Origin: a virus
Lineage: Duplodnaviria; Heunggongvirae; Uroviricota; Caudoviricetes
IMG/VR virus record: IMGVR_UViG_2675903650_000007
Location: 1 to 8,487 of that record
Strand: one strand, 5' to 3'
DNA length: 8,487 nucleotides
In this document: positions 1 to 8,487 of the stretch, piece by piece
How positions within the stretch are numbered: position 1 is the first letter of the stretch
Layout of the letters: every line of letters begins with the position of its first letter
The notes under the pieces: generated by a model
What the model was told of the DNA's origin: nothing
Databases searched by the model: none
The model's input: the letters and a program-made list of their open reading frames with translations, nothing else
Position numbers and translations under genes: made by a program

Positions 1-8
1 ACGCCATA

Positions 9-32
9 TCACTCTCCTTTGATGCGAATGCC
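9..32. repeat. 24-bp direct repeat, copy A (3' junction of Ea22-like paralog 2)
   Basis: TCACTCTCCTTTGATGCGAATGCC is identical at 9-32 and 852-875. On the minus strand it encodes GIRIKGE, the stop codon and the SD of the next gene. Confidence 0.85.
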
Positions 33-530
33 TGTTGCAATGCTGTTTATGATGCTGTCAGTGCATGGGGTAGAAAGCTGGGCATCTCCAGCAATTTTCA
101 TGACCTCAACATCTGCATATCGAATACCGAGGTGTATCAGACCGGCTATGCCTGACTTAAGTCGAACATTTTCCATAAACAGATCTTTTTCCCGCTGTTT
201 AGCGGCTTCCAACTCCATCGACAATTTTTCCAACTGCTCTTTATGCTTCTTGTATTCCTGATACGCGTGCCAAGACTGACCTTTGCGCACACTATCAGTG
301 ATATCAGCAACCTGCTCCGGTGTTAGCGTGGTCAGTGGCTGTGCTGGAAAAATCATCACCTTCCCGGCATCCCAATCAAAACCCGCCTGAATTGACTGAA
401 CCTCAACTGATGGTGTTGAACCGATGCGACCAGGCGAATGAACAACGATCGTTACATCCATATCGCGACGATGGCTGTGGTTGTTGGACAAAATACGATT
501 CACCAACTCAGAAAATTTGGAAAATTTCAT
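9..530 (-). CDS. Ea22-like family prophage protein, paralog 2 (173 aa from ATG at 528-530; the six-frame ORF extends to 659)
   Basis: Minus-strand ORF. Start chosen at MKFSKF because GAGGGA sits 5 nt upstream and the ATG overlaps the upstream gene's stop (ATGA). The C-terminus ...GIRIKGE* is identical to that of the 249-aa Ea22-like protein at 852..1601, encoded by the same 24-bp DNA. Central coiled-coil-like segment ([32 protein letters not shown]). Family assignment is from memory. Confidence 0.5.
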
Positions 531-850
531 GCTGATCCCTCTTTTTCTCCCCGGATAATTCTGTTGCACACATCCACACACTCGTCGCAGATGAAAACGG
601 CGTCCCCAGCAATTAACTTTTTGACGGCGTACTGGGATTTGTTGCAGAAGCTGCAACAAAGTGTTCGCCTGACTGATAAGGATGGAGCGCCAGATGTCAG
701 CCGCTCCATATCGTTCTTGCGACGCAATATCACACGGCTGAACTCAACCAGTTTCTCCGGGGATATCTCCTCCTCCGTAGCAAGCGCCTCTAATCGTTCG
801 AGTATGTGGAAGGCTTTTTTCTGGGTAATTGCAGAATGCGATGTGGTCAT
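527..850 (-). CDS. Small protein with C-terminal ClpX-type C4 zinc-finger domain (107 aa)
   Basis: Minus-strand ORF. Start at ATG 848-850 with GGAGAG 4 nt upstream, chosen over the in-frame ATG at 892 which has no good SD. The C-terminal segment [35 protein letters not shown] closely resembles the N-terminal zinc-binding domain of ClpX (CSFCGKSQHEVRKLIAG..ICDECVDLCNDII), including all four Cys. Stop overlaps the start of the downstream gene (ATGA). Confidence 0.7.
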
Positions 851-851
851 C

Positions 852-875
852 TCACTCTCCTTTGATGCGAATGCC
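852..875. repeat. 24-bp direct repeat, copy B (3' junction of Ea22-like paralog 1)
   Basis: Same 24-mer as 9-32; flanking sequence diverges on both sides. Confidence 0.85.
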
Positions 876-1601
876 AGCGGCGCGGGAATCATTCCATCGC
901 TTTACTTCTTCACGAATTACGTCAATGCATTCTTTCGAATCCATTAGGTAATCTTCATCAAAAAGACGTTCCTGTTCGTTTTCTATCGCAACAATGATTG
1001 CTTCAACTAACTTTTGTGCCTGAGAACCACTTTCTAACTCTGCAATGCGCTTCTCTGCGGCTTCCAGATTCTCGCGCATATCGTCAACGTACTCGACCAG
1101 AGATCCGCCAGCAGGAATTTCGCATTCCTCGACCAGTTGGAAGTAGATATCAGCTGCGGCCCGTGTGTTGCTATGCCTAGCGTCGCCCATCTCACCTTCA
1201 CGAAGAGCATCGCGTTCGGCGGTAAGATTGGCTATTTTGCTGTCTTTGCCTTCCAGCTCAACGCGCAGCCTCCCAACCGTAAGCGCAATATCCTCGTTCT
1301 CCTGATCGCGGCTTTTGATGTATTGCAGGTTTCTTTCCCGTTCATCCAGCAGTGCCAGCACGGTAGCCGGGTTAGCCTCTGCTATGAATTCAGCGTTTGC
1401 ATAAGCCTGAGCATCTGTTTCAACCAGGCAGTTAACGTGACATTCTGCAATTACGCCACCGGGTTCTCCTTTCCATTTTTGACAAACAAAAACTCCTGTT
1501 AAATTGCCGTGTTGGTTAACAGATGTATGCCCTACGATGTAGCTTCCTTTAGTTGCTTTCTCTGCCTTTTCACGCAGTGCCTGATAGTTAATCTCGCTCA
1601 C
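852..1601 (-). CDS. ead/Ea22-like family prophage protein, paralog 1 (249 aa)
   Basis: Minus-strand ORF with GTG start at 1599-1601 overlapping the upstream stop (GTGA) and GGAGG 7 nt upstream. N-terminus [19 protein letters not shown].., acidic coiled-coil middle, C-terminal ..GIRIKGE* shared with 9..530. Family assignment is from memory of E. coli prophage annotations. Confidence 0.6.
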
Positions 1602-1822
1602 TCTTCATCCTCCAAGTCGGCAACGGCGTCCATCACATCAGAACCGCGAATAACCTCAAAAGCACGGCAGGCCATTTGAAATACCAGTTGCTCTTGCGGG
1701 TGAGGAGACTCCCAATATTTGAAGCCTGGGCGATGCGTGTACCCCATCATTGAATAAAAATCACCAGCAAGCTTAATCGCGGCATCGACAAGCTCTCTGT
1801 TAGTCATTCTTTTTCCGCTCAC
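1598..1822 (-). CDS. Hypothetical small prophage protein (74 aa, acidic C-terminus)
   Basis: Minus-strand ORF. GTG start at 1820-1822 overlaps the upstream stop (GTGA) and has GGAGG 6 nt upstream. An alternative ATG start at 1805-1807 would give 69 aa. No recognised domain. Confidence 0.5.
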   Translation of the reverse strand: MSGKRMTNRELVDAAIKLAGDFYSMMGYTHRPGFKYWESPHPQEQLVFQMACRAFEVIRGSDVMDAVADLEDEE

Positions 1823-2250
1823 TGGTTGCCTCCTTTGCGAAGCTGGGCAGCAAAGTCAACTAACCACTCAGTCATTTCAACCTTCCCTACCAGGTCTGAA
1901 CCAGGGTACATACAGCAATCACTCTGCGCCGCTTTGAAATCCTTATACTCATATTCTTGGGCCACCAGATTTTTTGCAGCTTCTATAGCAGCATCCACCC
2001 CCTGCGCCCGGACTTCAGCCAGGAAAGCATCAGTGGCTGGCATATTTCCTGTTGCCTTCATTGCCTCCAAAATAACCAGAACGCCATCTCGCCCAATCTC
2101 CTCGCAGATAACCTCGGTGCTGTCGCCAACAACATCGCAAAATGCCTGAACTGCTTTACGAGCCAGCGCATCTTCCGCCCTGTGAAACGCCTCGCGGTTG
2201 AAATTTTCATATCCCGTCATTGGACCGGCAATATAAACTCTCACCCTCAC
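1819..2250 (-). CDS. Hypothetical protein with nucleoside 2-deoxyribosyltransferase-like (DUF4406-type) N-terminal motif (143 aa)
   Basis: Minus-strand ORF. GTG start at 2248-2250 overlaps the upstream stop (GTGA) and has AGGAGG 7 nt upstream. The N-terminus VYIAGPMTGYENFNREAF matches the K-IYIAGPMTG motif of DUF4406 / deoxyribosyltransferase-like phage proteins, but the remainder is longer and did not match my recollection of that family. Confidence 0.55.
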   Translation of the reverse strand: MRVRVYIAGPMTGYENFNREAFHRAEDALARKAVQAFCDVVGDSTEVICEEIGRDGVLVILEAMKATGNMPATDAFLAEVRAQGVDAAIEAAKNLVAQEYEYKDFKAAQSDCCMYPGSDLVGKVEMTEWLVDFAAQLRKGGNQ

Positions 2251-2639
2251 TCCATCACCTCCTGAAAGTTTCCCCGATAGAACGCCAGCACACGCTGCAT
2301 AACTTCGCTCCTCCTGCTCTCACGACAAATTATGTTCTGCCGTCTGTTGTAACGACGTATTTCTCCGTCAGGTAACTTTCGAATCAGTGTCGGGTCAGCA
2401 GCCTTCTCCGGTGTCTTACGCCATACGCGATACGCCTGCTCTGATGGAAATACCCCGCAACCAGAGAGCCAGACATCACCACTGGCCGCAAGCGCACCAG
2501 ATAAACGACGAATAGCGGTCTTACTGACACCCGTTTTATCTGCCAGTTGTCGAAAAGTTTCTCGTCCGCTCAGGCGCACGAATTCCACAATGCGCGCCTT
2601 CACTTCTTCCCGCTCTTCTGGTGTAAATACTTTTGCCAT
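2247..2639 (-). CDS. Hypothetical prophage protein (130 aa)
   Basis: Minus-strand ORF. ATG at 2637-2639 with GGAGG 5 nt upstream; the ORF track's TTG at 2654 is rejected. Basic, possibly nucleic-acid-binding (..KTGVSKTAIRRL.. resembles an HTH). Stop overlaps the next start. Confidence 0.55.
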   Translation of the reverse strand: MAKVFTPEEREEVKARIVEFVRLSGRETFRQLADKTGVSKTAIRRLSGALAASGDVWLSGCGVFPSEQAYRVWRKTPEKAADPTLIRKLPDGEIRRYNRRQNIICRESRRSEVMQRVLAFYRGNFQEVME

Positions 2640-2654
2640 AAGCGCCTCCGGCAA

Positions 2655-3380
2655 TCACTTTTCCGACACAATACGACCGGATGAATCGACAATCTGTCGA
2701 ACAATATCCCGGTGCTTGTTCAGCTCCCGCAGCGCGGCGCAGACTCGCTCCCACTTCTGAACCTGACCTTTTGCCCGGCGCAGCTCGCGGTTAGCCACAT
2801 GCAGCGATGGTAAAATCAGACCATCCGGATGTTTTCTGGTGAACGACGGCTGTGACTGCACTGTGACCGCCACACTTTCCGTTTTTATTTCTTCCTGTGT
2901 TTCTGCTTCCCGGACAGGTAACGCAACACCTGCTGGCTGAGGAAAGGCTTTACCATCGGTTTCCGCTACGGATGCAGCTTCCGGCTCTGCCGGTAAATCA
3001 GCGCCCGGTATGCAGTAACGAAATTTACCGCCCTGATTCACGCGAATCAGACGCCCTTTGCTGATTGCCATGGCCAGCGATGAATTCGCCCGGCGGGAGG
3101 TAATCCCGAACATCAGTGCCAGCTCATCCGCCGTTTGTGGGCCATGTTGTTCAATCGCCTCAGTCAACATTTGCGCTGTCACTTTCGGTACCGGTGACAC
3201 CGGTTCACTTTCACCAGCCTGAATCAGCCACCACATCGAACCCTTGTTATCCGCTTCACCGCGGCGCTTCAGTTTCCACAGTTCGTTGACCGCATCTTCA
3301 CGGCTGATTCCAAGGCGGGCCGCCACTACCTGTGAAGAGGCTCTTTTCAGTGCTTTCAGTGCGTCAAATACGGTTTCCAT
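2655..3380 (-). CDS. Hypothetical prophage protein with two tandem winged-helix-like segments (241 aa)
   Basis: Minus-strand ORF. ATG at 3378-3380 with GGAGG upstream. Two similar segments (..[25 protein letters not shown].. and ..[28 protein letters not shown]..) suggest an internal duplication of a small DNA-binding module. Sits immediately after the helicase-loader gene, where lambdoid phages carry accessory nin/ren-type genes. Confidence 0.6.
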
Positions 3381-3409
3381 TAAAATTTCCTCCGGATAAA
3401 AATTACTTC

Positions 3410-4150
3410 TCAGTTCCTGTGCTGGCTGACGTTCGGACGCCAGCTCTCCCAGTTAAACGTCACCCAGCGACCACCGTTCATGGACATGCGGTCCATTACC
3501 CGCTCGCCGAGAAGTGTATTCATCGCTGCATGATTAAGATTTGTCAGCATCCCCACACTGAGTAACGATGCCGTTCTACGGTCAACAATCTGATTCAGCG
3601 TGACCTGCTCATTACGCGTATCCCGTTGCATGCCAATTTCATCCAGTACCAGCAGGTCAACGCCACACAATCCCTGCAAAAATTTTTCGCCCGAGTTTTT
3701 GTTGTCGTAGCTGCCATGTAACGCTAGCATCACATCCGCCACTGTTATCACAATCACACTGCGACCTTTCGCCAGAAGGTGGTTGCCAATAGCCGCCGCC
3801 AGGTGGTTTTTTCCTGTGCCAGGCCTGCCACTGAAAACAAAATTCGTACAGCCGCCTTCCAGCTCTGCCGCAATGGATTTCGCCTGACTCAGGGCATGGC
3901 GCTGACCATCGTTCTGCACCCGGTAGTTACCGAACGTACACTTCCGGTGAAGCGGCTGGATACCGGAACGGTTAATGATTTTTTCAACCCGCGTCTGATG
4001 ATTCAGACGATTAACCTCCTCGCTTCGCTTACGCCCTTCAGCAAGCTGCCATTCCCGCCACTCCGCCACCGTACGGTACGGAGGGATTGCATCCTGCGGC
4101 ACAAATCTGCTGACTCTTGCCAGAACACCACCTGACGTAATGTTTTTCAT
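3410..4150 (-). CDS. DnaC-like replicative helicase loader (AAA+ ATPase, IstB/DnaC family; 246 aa)
   Basis: Walker [16 protein letters not shown] and Walker B LLVLDEIG motifs in the arrangement typical of DnaC and the Rac YdaV-type loader. ATG at 4148-4150, 6 nt after the stop of the initiator gene. Confidence 0.9.
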
Positions 4151-4156
4151 GATGCG

Positions 4157-5110
4157 CTACCCCCTGAACCCCGGCGGAATTTCGGTATCCGGTTCAGAAA
4201 TATGATTCACGCAACGCTGCGCGGGCGAACGCCCCAGGCGAATTACCAGTTCATCCCATTTTTCCCGGAGTTTTGCCGGACTCATGATGTTTTTTACCCA
4301 GAACGAATCCCGTTGAACACGCCCAAACATTTCACAAATCTGTCGGTGACTACGTCCATCCAGCATACGCATCATGCGCACATCATTCGCCCAGGTCGTC
4401 CAGTTAGGCTCTCTGGGGCGTGATACCTCCCCATCATCACTGGCGGCCTGTTCATACAACGCAACAACCCGTCCCCAGATCCACTGTGCACACGTCAAAT
4501 CCTCCCGGGTTCCCCACTGTCGCTTCGGTACATTCCAAGTATGCGCATCCGGGTGTTTCTCCAGAAATCGCTCAACTGGTGATGATTGTTTTTCGTCCGG
4601 CAGTGAAACGTCTGGACAAGAAGATCTTTTATCTGACGGATCAGGTTTTAATACTGACGGATCGGGGTCAATCATCGCCCCCCTAATCCGCAGTTTTTTA
4701 TCAACAGTTGATCCATCAACATTTGACGGGCCAACCGTTGAGGGGGCAATATTTGACGGGTCATTTTTTGCCGGGCTAATTTTTCTTTTTGGTTTATATG
4801 CCTCACGCGCCGCCGCTGCAGCTGCTTCAAGTTTTTCCACATTAAGCCGATAGATATTGCTTACGTTACGCCCACCGACCTTACGCTCTTCCTTCGTCAG
4901 CCAGCCCTCTTTCGCCAGTTCTGCAATAGCAGATTTAACGGTGGATTCACTTCTTGCACCGATCTGACGCCGGATAGTTTCAATGGCAGGCCATGACACG
5001 CCCTCGTCATTGCTGTAGTCTGCAAGACGGGCCATAACTGCCACCCTGGATAAGATCATGCCGGTGAAGGCGCACCCTTCCCAGACAAGACCATGAAGCT
5101 TGCTGCTCAT
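4157..5110 (-). CDS. Replication initiator / replisome organizer, O-like (317 aa from ATG 5108-5110)
   Basis: Minus-strand ORF directly upstream of the DnaC-like gene. N-terminal winged-helix-like domain, Ala-rich and Pro/Asp/Ser-rich linker, C-terminal domain. The linker DNA contains an iteron cluster and AT-rich tract, as lambda ori sits inside O. The ORF track's GTG at 5125 is rejected in favour of the ATG with GGGGG 4 nt upstream. Confidence 0.8.
   Translation of the reverse strand: MSSKLHGLVWEGCAFTGMILSRVAVMARLADYSNDEGVSWPAIETIRRQIGARSESTVKSAIAELAKEGWLTKEERKVGGRNVSNIYRLNVEKLEAAAAAAREAYKPKRKISPAKNDPSNIAPSTVGPSNVDGSTVDKKLRIRGAMIDPDPSVLKPDPSDKRSSCPDVSLPDEKQSSPVERFLEKHPDAHTWNVPKRQWGTREDLTCAQWIWGRVVALYEQAASDDGEVSRPREPNWTTWANDVRMMRMLDGRSHRQICEMFGRVQRDSFWVKNIMSPAKLREKWDELVIRLGRSPAQRCVNHISEPDTEIPPGFRG
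4634..4800. repeat. Putative origin of replication: iteron cluster plus AT-rich tract inside the O-like gene
   Basis: Direct repeats TGACGGATC (4634-4642, 4655-4663), TGACGGGCC (4724-4732), TGACGGGTC (4754-4762), a degenerate TGAGGGGG (4739-4746) and an inverted near-copy GATCCATCA (4710-4718). Immediately followed by AT-rich tcattttttgccgggctaatttttctttttggtttatat (4763-4800). Confidence 0.6.
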
Positions 5111-5132
5111 AAAACCCCCGAACACCGTGCTT

Positions 5133-5558
5133 TTAGTGCATCACCACAGCATTCCCTGCCGGGCCGCCGCGATTTATCTGGTCATACAAAACGACCGCTG
5201 ACGCAACAAAATCGTCGACATCCTTCACCAGCCGATCCCGCCGTTCGACAATCTCCCGGTAATACTCAGAACTGTGACTGCGCATACGGGCCACCAGCAA
5301 AGGCGGCATCGCCTTTTCGATCGCCGGTAACAGCGCCTGAATTTTTTCAACAGCATCAGGCGTATCCTTCTCCACCCAGCGGAAAATTTTCTGGGTATTA
5401 CGGGCCAGGGCTTCCGGATGGCTGTCGTCGTACAGTTCCGGGAACGTCATCCCAAGTTCGAAATAAGTCCGGGCTATTTCAGCTGCAGGCACTTTCTCAC
5501 CATCAGGATATGCCCAGGCATTCATCGCCATGCGGATGTGTTCATGTTTGATTTTCAT
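5133..5558 (-). CDS. YdaT-like protein (Rac-prophage YdaT family) in the cII position (141 aa)
   Basis: Minus-strand ORF immediately downstream of the cro-like gene, start overlapping its stop (ATGA at 5555-5558). The N-terminus MKIKHEHI.. matches my recollection of E. coli Rac YdaT. It does not resemble lambda CII. Confidence 0.65.
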   Translation of the reverse strand: MKIKHEHIRMAMNAWAYPDGEKVPAAEIARTYFELGMTFPELYDDSHPEALARNTQKIFRWVEKDTPDAVEKIQALLPAIEKAMPPLLVARMRSHSSEYYREIVERRDRLVKDVDDFVASAVVLYDQINRGGPAGNAVVMH

Positions 5559-5818
5559 GAATCAACTCCCAGCGCGGGTTGTGTGTTAGCCTGATAGTCA
5601 ACAGGTATGCCATCGGTTGGGTTGGGGTAAGTACTGCTATCAATCTCGTGCGGGGTCACTACCCACCCTGTTGCTTCACACCAGCGTAAAACTTTCCCCC
5701 CCGTAAGTTTCGCCCGTCCAGTAATAACATGGCTTACCATCCCTTGGGTTACCCCAACAATTTCAGCAAAATCTTTCTGGGTTATACGGGAATGATGCAA
5801 ATATTCTCCAAGATTCAT
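5555..5818 (-). CDS. Cro-like / YdaS-family HTH regulator (87 aa)
   Basis: First gene of the minus-strand operon, divergent from the repressor gene. HTH-like segment ITQKDFAEIVGVTQGMVSHVITGRAKLT. RBS GAGGTG 4 nt before the ATG at 5816-5818. Confidence 0.7.
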   Translation of the reverse strand: MNLGEYLHHSRITQKDFAEIVGVTQGMVSHVITGRAKLTGGKVLRWCEATGWVVTPHEIDSSTYPNPTDGIPVDYQANTQPALGVDS

Positions 5819-5847
5819 TGTTCACCTCATGTTATGTGACCATGAAT

Positions 5848-5890
5848 ATTAATAGCATTGTTATTTTTAAAAGTAAATAGCACTGCTATT
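5848..5890. promoter_or_regulatory. OR-like operator pair and divergent promoter region (PR-like on minus strand)
   Basis: Two 15-bp palindromes 25 bp apart: AATAGCATTGTTATT (5851-5865) and AATAGCACTGCTATT (5876-5890). On the minus strand a near-consensus -10 TATTAAT (plus coordinates 5848-5854) and -35 TTTACT (5872-5877) with a 17-bp spacer overlap the two operators and point into the cro-like gene. A plus-strand repressor promoter is expected between 5885 and 5920 but cannot be placed confidently. Confidence 0.65.
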
Positions 5891-5925
5891 TCAAAGAGAT
5901 TAATAATCTTATTAGAATTGAAGGT

Positions 5926-6426
5926 ATGAAAAGAAAACCCCTGTCAGAGATCGACCTGCAAGCCGCCCAGAGACTGAAAGAAATCTGGACGACGAAAAAA
6001 ACTCAACTTGGGTTAACCCAAGAGCGTGCGGCAGAAATTCTGGGTTTTTCGACACAAGGGGCAGTAAGCCATTATCTAAATGGTCAGACACCTTTAAATC
6101 TAGAGGCTGTTATCAAGTTCGCTGGGTTGCTACAAGTTCCGCCTGAGTCAATTAGACCAGATATGGCAGACTTGTTACGAATTGTAAGGATGTACCCCCA
6201 AGAACTGCAGCAGGATAATGTTGTCGCTTTACCCGCAGAGATGGAACAATCGGAAAACGAACTTCCGTTTAATATAGAACCTATAGAGCGAGATTTGATC
6301 CAGACGTTCAGGGCTTTCCCAAAAGAAGACAAAGAGAAAATGCTTAAGGAAATGAAGGAGAAAAAAGAATCAATTGAAGAAACCGTTGCGCGGTGGCTAG
6401 AGGCGCAAAAAGGTCTTCGCGCCTAA
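5926..6426 (+). CDS. Prophage repressor, XRE-family HTH, no S24 peptidase domain (DicA/RacR/PaaR2-like; 166 aa)
   Basis: Divergent from the cro-like gene across an operator-containing intergenic region. HTH motif LTQERAAEILGFSTQGAVSHYLNGQ. The C-terminus is Lys/Glu-rich helical and lacks a LexA/CI-type autocleavage domain. Followed after 17 nt by the antitoxin gene, so the three genes are probably co-transcribed. Confidence 0.8.
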   Translation: MKRKPLSEIDLQAAQRLKEIWTTKKTQLGLTQERAAEILGFSTQGAVSHYLNGQTPLNLEAVIKFAGLLQVPPESIRPDMADLLRIVRMYPQELQQDNVVALPAEMEQSENELPFNIEPIERDLIQTFRAFPKEDKEKMLKEMKEKKESIEETVARWLEAQKGLRA

Positions 6427-6443
6427 TCTGAGGAGGTTAGAAC

Positions 6444-6635
6444 ATGAGTACAGTCCTTTCCCCGATAATTTCAGAATTTGAAACAATCGAACAAGAAAAC
6501 AGCTATAACGAATGGTTACGCACCAAAGTGGCAGCAAGCCTCGCAGACCCCCGTCCTGCAATTCCGCATGACGAAGTAATGGCTGAAATGGAAAACCTTA
6601 TTGCGCAAATAGCTTCGACGAACAGGAGTGAGTAA
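6444..6635 (+). CDS. Small antitoxin (PaaA2-like) of a ParE-type toxin-antitoxin pair (63 aa)
   Basis: Strong RBS GAGGAGG 6 nt upstream of the ATG. Small acidic protein (..SEFETIEQENSYNEWLR..) whose stop overlaps the toxin start (TAATG at 6633-6637). The sequence resembles my recollection of PaaA2 from E. coli O157 prophages. Confidence 0.75.
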   Translation: MSTVLSPIISEFETIEQENSYNEWLRTKVAASLADPRPAIPHDEVMAEMENLIAQIASTNRSE

Positions 6636-6925
6636 TGCTGCCCATTTTATGGCTACCTTCTGCGCGTGATGATTTGCGTCAGATCGTAGCCTATATTGCC
6701 AAGGAAAACCCTCCCGCTGCACGTAGACTAAAAATACGCATTGAAACATCAGTTTTGTCACTTACTGAACACCCTTACCTGTATCCACCAAGCGAAAGAG
6801 CTCTAGGCCTTCGTGAGATAGTGACCCATCCTAACTACATAATACTTTACCGAGTAACAGCATCTAACATCGAGATCGTAAATGTAGTTCACTCACGAAG
6901 GCAGTATCCAAACAAAAGCTGTTAA
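6635..6925 (+). CDS. parE: ParE/RelE-superfamily toxin (ParE-like; 96 aa)
   Basis: Size and motif pattern typical of ParE toxins (LP-LW..A..DL..I..YIA.-NP.AA..L...I......L...P.-G......L-LRE.V-...YI--YRV....IEI-.V-HSRR). Translationally coupled to the preceding antitoxin gene. Confidence 0.8.
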   Translation: MLPILWLPSARDDLRQIVAYIAKENPPAARRLKIRIETSVLSLTEHPYLYPPSERALGLREIVTHPNYIILYRVTASNIEIVNVVHSRRQYPNKSC

Positions 6926-6939
6926 TCATTCCTACCAAC

Positions 6940-6964
6940 AACCACCTTCGGGTGGTTTTTTTTT
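6940..6964 (+). terminator. Rho-independent terminator of the repressor-antitoxin-toxin operon
   Basis: Perfect hairpin AACCACC-TTCG-GGTGGTT (stem 6940-6946 / 6951-6957, GNRA-like loop) followed by a T-run through 6964, 15 nt after the toxin stop codon. Confidence 0.8.
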
Positions 6965-6980
6965 CTTACCTCCAAAAAAC

Positions 6981-7022
6981 AATAGCATTACTATTTACAG
7001 AATAAAATAGCAGTGCTATTGT
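6981..7022 (+). promoter_or_regulatory. OL-like operator pair with PL-like promoter
   Basis: Second pair of the same 15-bp palindrome, again 25 bp apart: AATAGCATTACTATT (6981-6995) and AATAGCAGTGCTATT (7006-7020). Candidate -35 TTTACA (6994-6999) and -10 TATTGT (7017-7022) with a 17-bp spacer overlap both operators and point rightward. Confidence 0.6.
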
Positions 7023-7199
7023 TTATTCATCACCCACCCTCCCCACAGAACGCAGGGCAATACTTCGAGTTACCAGGCAGTGGTCAGGGGGTAAGTAGCC
7101 AGCCCGAGGCGTAAGAACATGACGGCAGGGTTCAACTTTAATAACTATGCAGCAGGTTTTTGTTCCGCTACCCCGGCGTTAAGGGGAAATGAGGTCAGC

Positions 7200-7352
7200 A
7201 TGGATACTATCGATCTTGGCAACAGCGAATCTCTGGTATGTGGCGTGTTCCCCAACCAGGACGGTACGTTTACCGCGATGACGTATACCAGAAGCAAAAC
7301 GTTTAAAACTGAAGCTGGCGCGCGTCGCTGGTTAACCAGAAACACTGACTGA
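7200..7352 (+). CDS. YdaF/YdfA-like small prophage protein (50 aa)
   Basis: RBS GAGG 5 nt before the ATG at 7200. MDTIDLGNSESLVCGVFPNQDGTFTAMTYTRSKTFKTEAGARRWLTRNTD resembles the ~51-aa first gene of the Rac/Qin PL-type operons as I recall it. The ORF track's longer version from ATG 7119 has no SD. Confidence 0.6.
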   Translation: MDTIDLGNSESLVCGVFPNQDGTFTAMTYTRSKTFKTEAGARRWLTRNTD

Positions 7353-7363
7353 TGAGGTTGACG

Positions 7364-7702
7364 ATGGAATTTAAAGATTTACCTCCTTCAATCCAGGAGA
7401 TTGCAGCACACACACTTCGTCATCGTCTGAACGAACTTGAATTGGAATCGGTAACAAAAAAAGACACTGATAATATGGCTCGTAATGTGCGCGATGCGTT
7501 TACTGGGCTGTTTTCAGATACAGCTTTAAATATCCATGGCACAGAGGATACAGCAAAACAATTTGCAGAAAAAGAAGTGGAAGATCCCAGTTCAAAGAGC
7601 CAGAAACAGCCAAACAACCATGAAATTAACGAACTGCTTCTGGCAACAGGCTTCATAAATATTAACGAATATGAACGCCGTAAAAAAATGTTATCTGATT
7701 AA
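7364..7702 (+). CDS. Hypothetical acidic prophage protein (112 aa)
   Basis: ATG at 7364 with GAGG 5 nt upstream; an in-frame ATG at 7352 overlaps the preceding stop and would add 4 aa. No recognised domain. The 3' end overlaps the convergent gene 7691..7885 by 12 bp. Confidence 0.55.
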   Translation: MEFKDLPPSIQEIAAHTLRHRLNELELESVTKKDTDNMARNVRDAFTGLFSDTALNIHGTEDTAKQFAEKEVEDPSSKSQKQPNNHEINELLLATGFININEYERRKKMLSD

Positions 7703-7885
7703 TCCATCAAGATATCTTTTTAGCATCAGCGTTTCTACGTTATTAAAACCATCAGATTTTAACATAGCTTCGATTCGCTGATTTAAATTGCCAACTAACT
7801 GTTGATACTGAGTAGATGGAAGCATGTGTACCAGCTCCTTGAGAACACAATAACATGCACCAAGTTTTAACTCCTGCTCTGACAT
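7691..7885 (-). CDS. Hypothetical small protein, convergent to the PL-like operon (64 aa)
   Basis: Minus-strand ORF with start ATG at 7883-7885 and GGAGGA 4 nt upstream. MSEQELKLGACYCVLKELVHML.. has no recognised family. The longer ORF-track version (88 aa, to 7957) lacks an SD. Confidence 0.45.
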   Translation of the reverse strand: MSEQELKLGACYCVLKELVHMLPSTQYQQLVGNLNQRIEAMLKSDGFNNVETLMLKRYLDGLIR

Positions 7886-8227
7886 TTTATCCTCCATTGA
7901 GGTTACTGGTTGAGAATGGAGACCTCTCGTGACAGCGTGTGGTCGTGCGCCGGACACGGATAAGAATCCGGCACTGACAGTTTACTGAAAGGATATTTCC
8001 CTGAAAAGTCAGACCATAACGCGAAAGCGCACGGCGAGGTAGCTGGTTCATAGATAGCCTGTCGTTAAATTTTCGTCGACCGTGCGCTTCCGGTTGTGGC
8101 AATCCGCGAAATGGCGCGGCGGTAAGTATGGCTGGGGTTTCCTCCATTGCTCCAGAAAATGCACCGGGTTGTCAGGTTGACCATACGCTTAAGTGACAAC
8201 CCCGCTACAACGCCCTCTGTTATCAAT

Positions 8228-8285
8228 TTTCTGGTGACATTTGGCGGTATCAGTTTTACTCCGTGACTGCTCTGCCGCCCTTTTT
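8228..8285 (+). ncRNA. dicF: DicF-like small regulatory RNA
   Basis: tttctggtgacatttggcggtatcagttttactccgtgactgctctgccgcccttttt matches the ~53-nt DicF sRNA of the E. coli Qin prophage almost base for base, from memory with about one difference, including the GC-rich 3' stem and U-tract. Confidence 0.8.
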
Positions 8286-8290
8286 AAAGT

Positions 8291-8442
8291 GAATTTTGTG
8301 ATGCGGTGAATGCGGCTCAGCGCACGCGGAACAGTTAAAACAAGCGGTCTTTTACGGGCGTAACGGGAATGCTCTGTATCCGGCGTTAATTGTTAACTGG
8401 TTAACGTCACCTGGAGGCACCAGGCACCGCATCACAAAATTC
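8291..8442. repeat. 18-bp perfect inverted repeat enclosing 116 nt, immediately 3' of DicF
   Basis: GAATTTTGTGATGCGGTG (8291-8308) is the exact reverse complement of CACCGCATCACAAAATTC (8425-8442). On a DicF read-through transcript this would form an 18-bp dsRNA stem. Confidence 0.7.
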
Positions 8443-8487
8443 ATTGTTGAGGACGCGATTGTCACGAACGGTGCAATAGTGATCCAC

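Follow-up and report, generated by a model that had tools for sequence, protein, structure and literature searches.

A 24-nt sequence at the ends of two dissimilar phage genes is a stereotyped gene junction of accessory-gene arrays in temperate phages of E. coli

Why should two neighbouring phage genes that encode different proteins end in exactly the same nucleotides? The question is raised by an 8,487-nt stretch of a Caudoviricetes genome (IMG/VR record IMGVR_UViG_2675903650_000007, positions 1 to 8,487; hereafter, the window). An earlier note on this DNA had reported an identical 24-bp junction at the ends of two genes, and this observation is confirmed: the exact 24-mer TCACTCTCCTTTGATGCGAATGCC (plus strand) occurs twice within the window, at 9-32 and 852-875. 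With up to 3 mismatches allowed, the 24-mer has 0 matches in 200 dinucleotide-preserving shuffles; the pair is exact and non-random. It can be extended to 28 nt (5-32 and 848-875) at 96% identity, with one mismatch, and the extension adds CAT, that is, the ATG of the next gene on the minus strand. On that strand, both copies run GGC ATT CGC ATC AAA GGA GAG TGA [T/G] ATG and are read as a GIRIKGE tail, a stop codon, one base, and a start codon (Table 1). The repeat (hereafter, the junction, or J) recurs in stereotyped form between genes in the accessory-gene arrays of temperate E. coli phages and did not arise by duplication in this genome. Comparative data strongly support the earlier description of a conserved module junction that comprises a tail, a stop codon, and the Shine-Dalgarno sequence (SD) of the next gene.

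Table 1. Features of the junction region of the window
Feature	Position	Strand	Remarks
ATG of next gene (class D1, 171 aa)	5..7	-	gene extends beyond the window
Junction copy 1 (J)	9..32	-	GIRIKGE + TGA ending the 173-aa gene; exact 24-mer
Shine-Dalgarno AAAGGAGAG, copy 1, in codons K-G-E	12..20	-	ends 6 nt ahead of ATG at 7-5
Ea22-derived C-terminal module of 173-aa gene	9..227	-	coiled-coil end, C-terminal domain class U1, tail
Non-Ea22 N-terminal module of 173-aa gene	228..530	-	residues 1-101, phrog_6026
ClpX C4 zinc-finger domain gene, 107 aa	527..850	-	Pfam PF06689, 57 bits
Junction copy 2 (J)	852..875	-	GIRIKGE + TGA ending the Ead/Ea22-like gene; exact 24-mer
Shine-Dalgarno AAAGGAGAG, copy 2	855..863	-	ends 6 nt ahead of zinc-finger ATG at 850-848
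CGCGCCGCT (R-A-A), partly conserved J extension	876..884	-	common to several unrelated C-terminal-domain classes
Ead/Ea22-like gene, 249 aa	852..1601	-	N-terminal domain, coiled coil, variable C-terminal domain (class U0), tail
Conserved coiled-coil stretch (...RVELE)	1251..1358	-	second-lowest-diversity region of the gene family

The two genes that end in the junction are built differently. Both had been taken for Ea22-like; this holds for the 249-aa ORF, which matches the Pfam family Ead_Ea22 (PF13935) over profile positions 1-139 with 114.2 bits (gathering cut-off, 27), but not for the 173-aa ORF (9-530, minus strand), which has no match to any Pfam family at E <= 0.01, Ead_Ea22 included. 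The 173-aa gene is a chimera of a non-Ea22 N-terminal module and an Ea22-derived C-terminal module: over 72 aa, residues 102-173 of its product are 92% identical with the C-terminal end of a genuine 182-aa Ea22-like protein of another locus (L198), and window regions 2-200 and 9-200 carry ead/Ea22-like annotation in other genomes (H65 and H66). The start of this gene overlaps the stop of the zinc-finger gene (ATGA), and in 15 of 19 related loci the zinc-finger gene is followed by a gene recognized by a ten-residue stretch of its protein; the zinc-finger gene and the 173-aa gene form a two-gene unit. Two cassettes are stacked in the window, in a nin-like region located downstream from the genes for replication: the Ea22-like gene with its junction, and the zinc-finger gene together with the chimeric 173-aa gene and its junction. 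The zinc-finger gene thus lies between the two copies, as noted earlier, but so does the entire body of the 173-aa gene; exchange between the copies would remove or duplicate the zinc-finger gene, as had been expected, but only within a unit of 843 bp that includes the 173-aa body and one copy of J. The D1 gene is annotated as frameshifted in the source genome. The only Rfam match in the window is DicF, at 8229-8280.

The 24-mer is present in at least 119 IMG/VR contigs, and a 36-nt junction query finds matches in 2893 of 5426 complete E. coli genomes, at 5923 places in total and with as many as 10 in a single genome. Across 122 occurrences of J, 13 upstream classes and 21 downstream classes are joined in 53 combinations; the IMG/VR loci are redundant, with many near-identical E. 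coli prophages, so that these counts do not correspond to independent events. Conservation drops to background 9 nt upstream of J and directly past the ATG, and J is a conserved short sequence with alternative non-homologous flanks, as defines a module-boundary linker. Upstream genes that are not Ea22-like include those for an HNH_3 endonuclease and a Mom-like/XF1762 protein as well as one for an unassigned protein of 102 aa. We rejected a special link between the zinc-finger gene and J: this gene, one of the 21 downstream classes, follows J in 3 of the 122 occurrences, and a different sequence precedes it in 6 of the 19 related loci. When one genome per species was scanned, the matches came mostly from lambda DNA contamination in unrelated assemblies and are of little use for host range.

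Among 76 Ea22-like genes sampled independently of J, 43 carry the identical 24-mer. In the 55 genes with J (up to 3 mismatches), nucleotide diversity (pi) is 0.018, the lowest of all 24-nt windows of the alignment, the next lowest being 0.055. A separate ungapped estimate for the Ea22 N-terminus (0.376), which is unreliable because of indels, was discarded in favour of the MAFFT-based profile. The distinct kinds of J variants, counted in these genes and other loci, are fewer than 10: about 6 non-synonymous (G>D, G>V, I>F, R>C, I>L, and E>K, in the E. coli pool) against 3 synonymous (ATT>ATC, ATC>ATT, and GGC>GGT). Diversity at J is thus very low, synonymous changes are not in excess, and the variant ratio is roughly neutral. 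Different host pools carry different alleles: E. coli phages have J1 (GIRIKGE), Salmonella P22-like phages have J3 (AGIKVKES), and a third pool has J2 (GIGVKGE). The three alleles have in common the anchor GCCGCTGGCATT, which consists of GCCGCT and the first two J codons (GGCATT). The conservation of this A-A-G-I anchor (GCYGCTGGCAT) across the alleles of different pools is explained neither by an SD role nor by recent exchange and could reflect a peptide-level or other constraint.

The geometry of the junction suggests what it might do for translation. The codons AAA-GGA-GAG are the SD of the next gene, in a sequence that also supplies the last seven codons and the stop codon of the upstream gene. 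The start codon lies 1 nt past the stop in 119 of the 122 occurrences, and the arrangement TGA-N-ATG, with AAAGGAGAG ending 6 nt ahead of the start, agrees with that of coupled gene pairs, in which an SD-like sequence lies 5-9 nt before the downstream start and the upstream stop within a few nucleotides of it. Because the SD is located within J and the ATG one base past the stop, the downstream gene would probably be translationally coupled and need no ribosome-binding site of its own. The alternative tails GIRIKGGE*, AGKGEAS*, GIKEESE*, FTKEGAAR*, and AGIKVKES* each retain an SD-like run ahead of a start codon that is adjacent or overlaps. A scan for promoters and terminators yielded counts at chance level.

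Alignments break off at the junction. There are 245 phage records that match the downstream gene together with J, and among the 30 alignments listed, the match ends at query positions 383-401, that is, at the 5' edge of J. In local BLAST searches, with J at query positions 360-383, the ends of all 45 HSPs on the downstream side fall at 371-393, and of the 57 on the upstream side, 33 begin at 353-360. Breakpoints that coincide with the linker are thus observed both in the phage records listed and in the local HSPs. One C-terminal domain, U8, allows a crossover to be placed: its last ~75 nt are identical in two phage pools, yet J differs between them at 5 of 14 nt, which positions the exchange at the shared anchor. 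Within the 249-aa gene, BLAST alignments begin or end at about 1245-1255 and at 1361-1364, and the conserved coiled-coil stretch is likely the upstream homology arm for the exchange of C-terminal domains.

The comparison of presence and absence that the earlier note called for also has a positive outcome. A natural arrangement that lacks the inter-repeat segment exists, with U0-J-D1 contiguous at 97.9% identity over 564 nt (L042, L186, and L187), and the same two flanks enclose other fillings of 300, 364, and 537 bp. No exact one-step deletion derivative of this prophage is among the matches listed for E. coli and phage records: with a synthetic query composed of the downstream gene, one copy of J, and the end of the Ea22 gene, each of the best 25 among 36 E. 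coli records with high coverage aligns as two separate pieces, and coverage of the query reaches 80% in none of the phage records. The 'empty' arrangement that was found exists at the level of domains, not as a deletion derivative of the whole prophage.

We consider J to be, probably, a module-boundary linker that serves both to initiate coupled translation and to provide a short patch of homology at which cassettes are exchanged. Because the same 24-37 nt lie in many phages between otherwise unrelated sequences, J offers a patch of perfect identity, and the length of this patch is close to the minimum required by Red-beta-type recombinases; published values for the minimal efficient pairing segment are 23-27 bp with Red-beta and 31-34 bp with RecA (PMC3945230). 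Through exchange at J, a phage would replace its downstream cassette or, on the upstream side, a C-terminal domain or a gene, with the reading frame and expression preserved, and the junction would be maintained by its two uses, in initiation and in exchange. The earlier suggestion of a recombination linker for the shuffling of cassettes is probably right, given the combinatorial flanks, the breakpoints at J, and the natural arrangement that lacks the inter-repeat segment; from these patterns, we infer that RecA or Rad52-like recombinases of phages carry out homologous recombination at J. A more far-reaching reading, which we offer as a speculation with a limited chance of being correct, is that J, far from a passive relic, is a selected standard connector that gives enterobacterial temperate phages, both lambdoid ones and P1/P7-like phage-plasmids, an integrase-free cassette system, the alleles of the host pools being compatibility tags that channel exchange within a pool; in a variant of this reading, the A-A-G-I-x-I/V-K tail is additionally a portable peptide signal.

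Breakpoints at gene boundaries are, however, also expected if selection acts on random illegitimate joints. J would then be kept only as a good translation-initiation region and as the ancestral 3' end of ea22, and new flank combinations would come from illegitimate recombination and subsequent selection, with homology at J irrelevant, an explanation that we regard as unlikely. It accords with the view of Hendrix and Juhala that random illegitimate recombination is followed by selection for intact gene boundaries. The SD inside J and the adjacent start codons fit this explanation, as does the finding that the 3' half of J alone terminates unrelated genes too (the 16-mer AAAGGAGAGTGANATG terminates non-Ea22 genes); moreover, each new upstream class must first have acquired J via a non-homologous joint, the conserved upstream extension ranges from 0 to 9 nt, and ~70% of temperate-phage mosaics carry no trace of flanking homology (PMC3945230). 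What argues against it is that 13 unrelated upstream ends join within 0-9 nt of one and the same 24-mer, the first 12 nt of which (GGCATTCGCATC) are not SD, and that synonymous diversity is near zero, whereas selection on the SD would not constrain codons 1-4. Furthermore, lambda retains J without a coupled gene; as GATC, not ATG, follows J there, an SD role cannot explain this retention.

Alternatively, (R)AAGIRIKGE might be a portable functional peptide that is retained by selection on many proteins and serves, for instance, in docking or degradation, the N-terminal zinc-binding domain of ClpX being a conceivable partner; we find this quite unlikely. At least 13 unrelated C-terminal domains carry the tail in frame, the pattern A-G-I-x-[IV]-K/E-x-E/S recurs in diverged DNA alleles of Salmonella and other phage pools, and a ClpX-zinc-finger gene happens to come after one copy of J in the window. 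The likeness of the I-R-I-K of the tail to the L-R-V-V-K of the XB-like ClpX-docking tail of SspB is loose. However, the variants in the E. coli pool are mostly non-synonymous at a roughly neutral ratio, the tails of other Ea22-like proteins (AGKGEAS, FTKEGAAR, and GIKEESE) differ and retain the SD only, and just the 3 junctions mentioned above precede a zinc-finger gene. The '+GE' end that Ea22 proteins have in common according to the literature (PMC7093339) fits a peptide signal, but K/R-G-E is exactly what the SD AAR/AGR-GGA-GAG encodes. The possibility that the tail has a function of its own, also raised earlier, is weakened by the variants and by the divergent tails.

It is very improbable, and already largely excluded, that a dedicated mechanism of site-specific recombination or homing acts on J, as on an integron attC or a homing-endonuclease site. 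The cassette-like combinatorial arrays would be compatible with such a mechanism, as would the HNH endonuclease encoded by one J-tailed gene and the HNH remnant nearby in the source prophage, but HNH genes are rare among the J contexts (1 of 122), and J has no inverted-repeat or hairpin potential. Folding of both copies with flanks and of the 37-nt cores gives z-scores from -1.8 to +1.0 and no structure in common, there is no Rfam match in 1-2300, and no integrase or recombinase gene is present in the 13.7-kb neighbourhood of the array; J is thus distinct from structured sites, which combine a hairpin-forming imperfect inverted repeat with a cognate recombinase nearby. Finally, a simple tandem duplication of one Ea22-like gene in this prophage, for which Ea22-type C-terminal sequence in both genes might speak, is refuted, as BLASTP aligns only the last residues of the two proteins (E = 0.01), the protein bodies, which the earlier note had called different, thus being unrelated, each gene has closer relatives elsewhere with different partners, and phage-plasmids whose Ea22 N-terminal part is a different one show the same arrangement of two copies (H1 and H2); full-length homology without recombination, which would have spoken against the note, is not what we see, given that recombination signatures are present.

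As a module-boundary linker, J clearly exemplifies a principle that is already known and does not represent a novel type of element or system. It is nevertheless an unusually clean natural case in which to weigh short conserved linkers against random joints filtered by selection as sources of phage mosaicism, with a size of 24-37 nt that is near the published pairing minimum of Red-beta, thousands of sites in E. coli, and dozens of flank combinations. For annotation and engineering, J marks points of exchange of Ea22-like and neighbouring accessory genes, in Stx phages included, and the genes downstream of J would lack a ribosome-binding site of their own, which is relevant to annotation.

The closest known systems include the linkers of lambdoid phages, which are reportedly part of the modular theory of Susskind and Botstein, and for which boundary sequences are said to have been reported in HK620 by Clark et al. 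in 2001. The general statement of boundary linkers in lambdoid phages (PMC4546147) describes, as for J, a short conserved boundary sequence, non-homologous alternative modules, and a proposed site of homologous exchange; unlike these linkers, J lies inside coding sequence, doubles as C-terminus, SD, and stop, and has alleles specific to host pools. The mechanism that we invoke is that of De Paepe et al. 2014 (PMC3945230), namely, Red-beta acting on very short identity, with exchanges between phages and defective prophages; the homologies measured there are hundreds of base pairs or more, and the junction is not described. That study reported no recent exchange between lambda-like and P1-like phages, whereas here J together with the D1 gene is common to Stx phages and P7 at ~96% identity. 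Arrays of integron attC cassettes resemble J arrays by analogy only, being promoterless and combinatorial in content, with a recurring short separator; in contrast to attC, J has no integrase and no hairpin-forming imperfect inverted repeat, and is in frame within coding sequence.

The ea22 gene of lambda itself (NC_001416, complement 29847-30395) ends in the same 24 nt as the window copies (29847-29870, GIRIKGE-TGA). In lambda, J is followed by GATC and a decayed remnant, in contrast to the coupled ATG of the window, ea8.5 starts ~190 nt past J with its own ribosome-binding site, and ea22 belongs to the PL operon (exo-xis region), whereas the copies in the window are in a nin-like region. A literature search for GIRIKGE found no paper. 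In Dydecka et al. 2020 (PMC7093339), every Ea22 protein compared terminates with K/R-G-E, although the C-terminal domains are unrelated, and the significance of this '+GE' motif is stated there as unknown. What is a protein motif in that study is here the in-frame reading of the SD (AAA/AGR GGA GAG) and belongs to a longer DNA junction of 24-37 nt that is found on non-Ea22 genes too. To read the '+GE' end of Ea22 proteins as the SD of the gene that follows gives a concrete and testable answer to a small question in the lambda literature.

The sequence TCACTCTCCTTTGATGCGAATGCC occurs in the window as two exact 24-nt copies, with no match in any of the shuffled sequences, and the pair grows to 28 nt with one mismatch. 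Read in the coding sense (GGC ATT CGC ATC AAA GGA GAG TGA N ATG), each copy encodes a GIRIKGE tail, a stop codon and, after one base, the start of the next gene; the Shine-Dalgarno (SD) sequence AAAGGAGAG ends 6 nt 5' of that start. The earlier note was thus right that an identical 24-bp sequence at both gene ends combines tail, stop and SD. We denote this gene junction J. The window is identical to the E. coli DETEC-S792 chromosome (NZ_CP116067.1, starting at position 796049) and comes from a lambdoid prophage that carries the DicF antisense sRNA and is therefore of the Qin/dicB type. All genes in 1-5800 are on the minus strand and constitute the rightward early operon, with a cro-like gene, a gene in the YdaT/cII position, an initiator, a DnaC-like loader and a nin-like array of small accessory genes. 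The 15-nt tandem units resemble origin iterons that lie within the replication gene, an arrangement known from lambda O, and the boxes on either side of the cI-like gene look like OR-type and OL-type operators.

Coordinates and identities of the features in the window
Feature	Position	Strand	Remarks
J, first copy	9-32		
J, second copy	852-875		
Further gene	7-5	-	only the ATG in the window; remainder beyond the window edge
173-aa gene	530-9	-	start overlaps stop of zinc-finger gene
ClpX C4 zinc-finger gene	850-527	-	107 aa
Ead/Ea22-like gene	1601-852	-	249 aa; Pfam PF13935, 114 bits
Second homology-breakpoint cluster	1039-1052		inside Ea22-like gene, ~55 codons upstream of tail
Gene-remnant fusion	1819-2250	-	143-aa ORF; DUF4406 N-terminus (~30 aa) and phrog_368-type C-terminus; in RefSeq, two pseudogene fragments (HNH endonuclease, DUF4406)
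Initiator-like ORF	4157-5125		
Tandem units	4702-4776		four 15-nt units, CAACAGTTGAnnnnn-like, within initiator-like ORF
Inverted-repeat boxes	5851-5890; 6974-7027		AATAGCAnTGCTATT, repeated; flank cI-like gene
cI-like repressor gene	5926-6426		
RelE/ParE toxin-antitoxin pair	6444-6925		between repressor gene and second box set
DicF	8229-8280	+	full length; Rfam RF00039, 77 bits (gathering score 48)

The two proteins that end in J have, as previously noted, different bodies: aligned beyond the tail, the 249-aa and 173-aa proteins have nothing else in common, and local tandem duplication as the origin of the two copies is essentially excluded. The claim that both are Ea22-like holds fully for the 249-aa protein, a member of the Pfam family, but only in part for the 173-aa protein, which is not a member. 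The latter protein is a chimera. Over residues 102-173 it matches the C-terminal end of a true Ea22-like protein of 182 aa at 92% identity, from the conserved KLxxELE at the end of the coiled coil onwards, whereas residues 1-101 come from another family, phrog_6026. A single family, phrog_368, matches three window proteins (9-530, 852-1601 and 1819-2250), each over a different, non-overlapping part of the profile; chimeric proteins of the Ea22 type were evidently used to build it. In 15 of 19 related loci, the zinc-finger gene is paired with the second gene of the unit via an ATGA overlap, and this second gene bears several alternative C-termini. Because the two genes travel together in most relatives, the segment between the copies is a two-gene unit: the zinc-finger gene does lie there, though not alone, and recombining the two copies would delete or insert the whole 843 bp rather than that gene only.

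J is widespread. The lambda ea22 gene ends in the same 24-mer (NC_001416, 29847-29870), which at least 119 viral contigs of IMG/VR also carry. Among 5426 complete E. coli genomes, 2893 have a match to a 36-nt query with J at its centre; the matches lie in 5923 places, as many as ten in one genome, and 283 of these places are on plasmids. A scan of one genome per species recovered mainly lambda contamination, plus Escherichia species and Shimwellia. The exact 24-mer is also found in ~30 assemblies of unrelated bacteria, such as Streptomyces, Bacillus, Prevotella and Pseudomonas, on contigs that are either ~48.4-48.5 kb or short, several with low coverage; this is almost certainly contaminating phage lambda DNA.

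We classified both flanks of 122 occurrences of J, all oriented the same way. Thirteen unrelated upstream gene ends are joined to 21 unrelated downstream starts in 53 combinations, each common upstream class being paired with 4 to 9 different downstream genes. When each class is represented once, conservation reaches the background level 9 nt upstream of the 24-mer and directly after the ATG. Ten of the 13 upstream classes are Ea22-like proteins that share the N-terminus and coiled coil, while their C-terminal domains are unrelated; the tail is likewise found on an HNH_3 endonuclease, a Mom-like/XF1762 protein and an unassigned 102-aa protein. The cassettes that follow J include a dATP/dGTP pyrophosphohydrolase-DUF551 protein, other DUF551 proteins, the zinc-finger gene and a 251-aa gene (D6), often coupled to J, that is labelled queuine tRNA-ribosyltransferase in RefSeq phage records, yet has no Pfam match at E <= 0.001 and may be a DpdA-like DNA-modification gene.

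Homology breaks at J. We searched with a synthetic query comprising D1 (the gene that runs off the window start), one J copy (query 360-383) and the end of the Ea22-like gene. The D1 side was matched by 245 phage records, including Stx phages, Shigella phages and P7, and in the 30 alignments listed the matches end at query 383-401, the 5' edge of J. Among the loci collected, all 45 D1-side alignments stop at query 371-393, and 33 of 57 Ea22-side alignments start at 353-360; most others start within the gene, at a second hotspot (window ~1039) where the exchangeable C-terminal domain begins. On the presence or absence of the inter-repeat segment, a comparison that the earlier note had proposed, three loci on two contigs cross J in a single alignment (97.9% over 564 nt): they are a natural configuration that lacks the segment, with the same C-terminal domain joined via J directly to D1. 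In phage-plasmids, the same flanks enclose other fillings, of 300, 364 or 537 bp. P1/P7-like phages and phage-plasmids (P7; 90-100 kb E. coli plasmids) carry J and D1 at ~96-97% identity to Stx/lambdoid phages, whereas these groups have been reported as lacking recent exchange (PMC3945230).

Loci retrieved via D6 contain, besides the window allele (J1), diverged alleles: J2 (GGCATTGGCGTGAAGGGGGAGTGA, GIGVKGE) and J3 (GGCATCAAGGTTAAGGAGTCGTGA, AGIKVKES; its ATG overlaps), the latter being the allele of P22-like phages of Salmonella, BTP1 among them. Each allele is found on several unrelated C-terminal domains. The sharpest case is one domain class that occurs with both J1 and J2: its last ~75 nt are identical but for one extra Ala codon, with ~9% divergence further upstream, and 5 of 14 nt differ inside J. 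Such identity next to such change rejects point mutation as the source, and the pattern reads as a recombination joint at the common anchor, GCCGCTGGCATT.

Among 76 Ea22-like genes retrieved via their bodies, and hence independently of J, 44 end in GIRIKGE and 43 have the identical 24-mer. In a MAFFT alignment of the 55 genes that have J at up to 3 mismatches, J is the 24-nt window of lowest diversity (pi 0.018; the runner-up, 0.055, lies in the conserved coiled coil), and third codon positions are not more variable than first or second ones. Loci retrieved via D1 carry exact J (53 of 80), a G>D variant (17), a synonymous variant (1) or only the 3' half, with ends ...KGE* or ...KGK* (9). The alternative Ea22-like tails (GIRIKGGE*, GIRINGGE*, AGKGEAS*, GIKEESE*, FTKEGAAR*) all keep an SD-like purine run a few bases 5' of an adjacent or overlapping start, and the 16-mer AAAGGAGAGTGANATG also terminates unrelated genes (for example, ...NHLRTKGE* and ...AAMLQGKGE*). 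This accounts for the K/R-G-E end of Ea22 proteins, recorded as being of unknown significance (PMC7093339): it is the next gene's SD read in frame.

Some observations do not fit easily. In lambda, what comes after J is GATC and the decayed remains of a downstream ORF, so that its SD has no gene to serve and is idle there. These remains (GATCGGTTTTGTAAAAG...) occupy lambda 29656-29846, downstream of ea22; in relatives the corresponding sequence starts with TATGAGCAGGAATACGGGTTTGTAAAAG, itself an ORF of just 7 codons. The SD role does not explain why the A-A-G-I anchor is kept across junction alleles from different host pools, and recent exchange does not explain it either. A main rival, in which selection filters the products of illegitimate recombination and J is no more than a good initiation region, seems unlikely. 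That the tail is a portable functional peptide is less probable again: anchor conservation may reflect a peptide-level or other constraint, but the variant kinds across all samples, six non-synonymous (G>D, G>V, I>F, R>C, I>L, E>K) and three synonymous (ATT>ATC, ATC>ATT, GGC>GGT), are close to the neutral ratio and, in these small numbers, do not point to purifying selection on the peptide. That J is a structured site for site-specific recombination is essentially excluded.

We favour J as a linker at a module boundary that would double as the translation-initiation region for whichever gene comes next. The identity of the copies, their geometry, the combinatorial flanks and the breakpoints are shown here, and the last two strongly support the earlier note's conserved module junction, probably a recombination linker; the recombination pathway acting at J, the translational coupling and the reason for its maintenance are what we infer. 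A crossover within J would swap modules while upstream frame, stop, SD and start stay in register. J measures 24 nt where exact and 28 nt if the start codon is counted, and classes with a common R-A-A have up to 37 nt in common; this length matches the minimal efficient pairing segment of Red-beta, 23-27 bp (31-34 bp for RecA; PMC3945230). For swaps of C-terminal domains in Ea22-like genes, the second arm could be the conserved coiled-coil stretch (window 1251-1358); the chimeric joint in the 173-aa gene falls exactly at the conserved coiled-coil motif.

Ea22 mosaicism, in which the N-terminus and coiled coil are common and the C-terminal domains unrelated (PMC10834534), the '+GE' end (PMC7093339) and the view of short linker sequences as the places where lambdoid modules are exchanged (PMC4546147) have been published. 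In the literature searched, we found no paper with the string GIRIKGE and no earlier description of this junction as a 24-37 nt DNA element, of J on non-Ea22 genes, of the SD reading of '+GE', of J prevalence in E. coli genomes or of its host-pool alleles. The HK620 paper reportedly describes lambdoid module exchange at short linker sequences. Like these lambdoid linkers, J is a short sequence at a module boundary and a proposed site of exchange.
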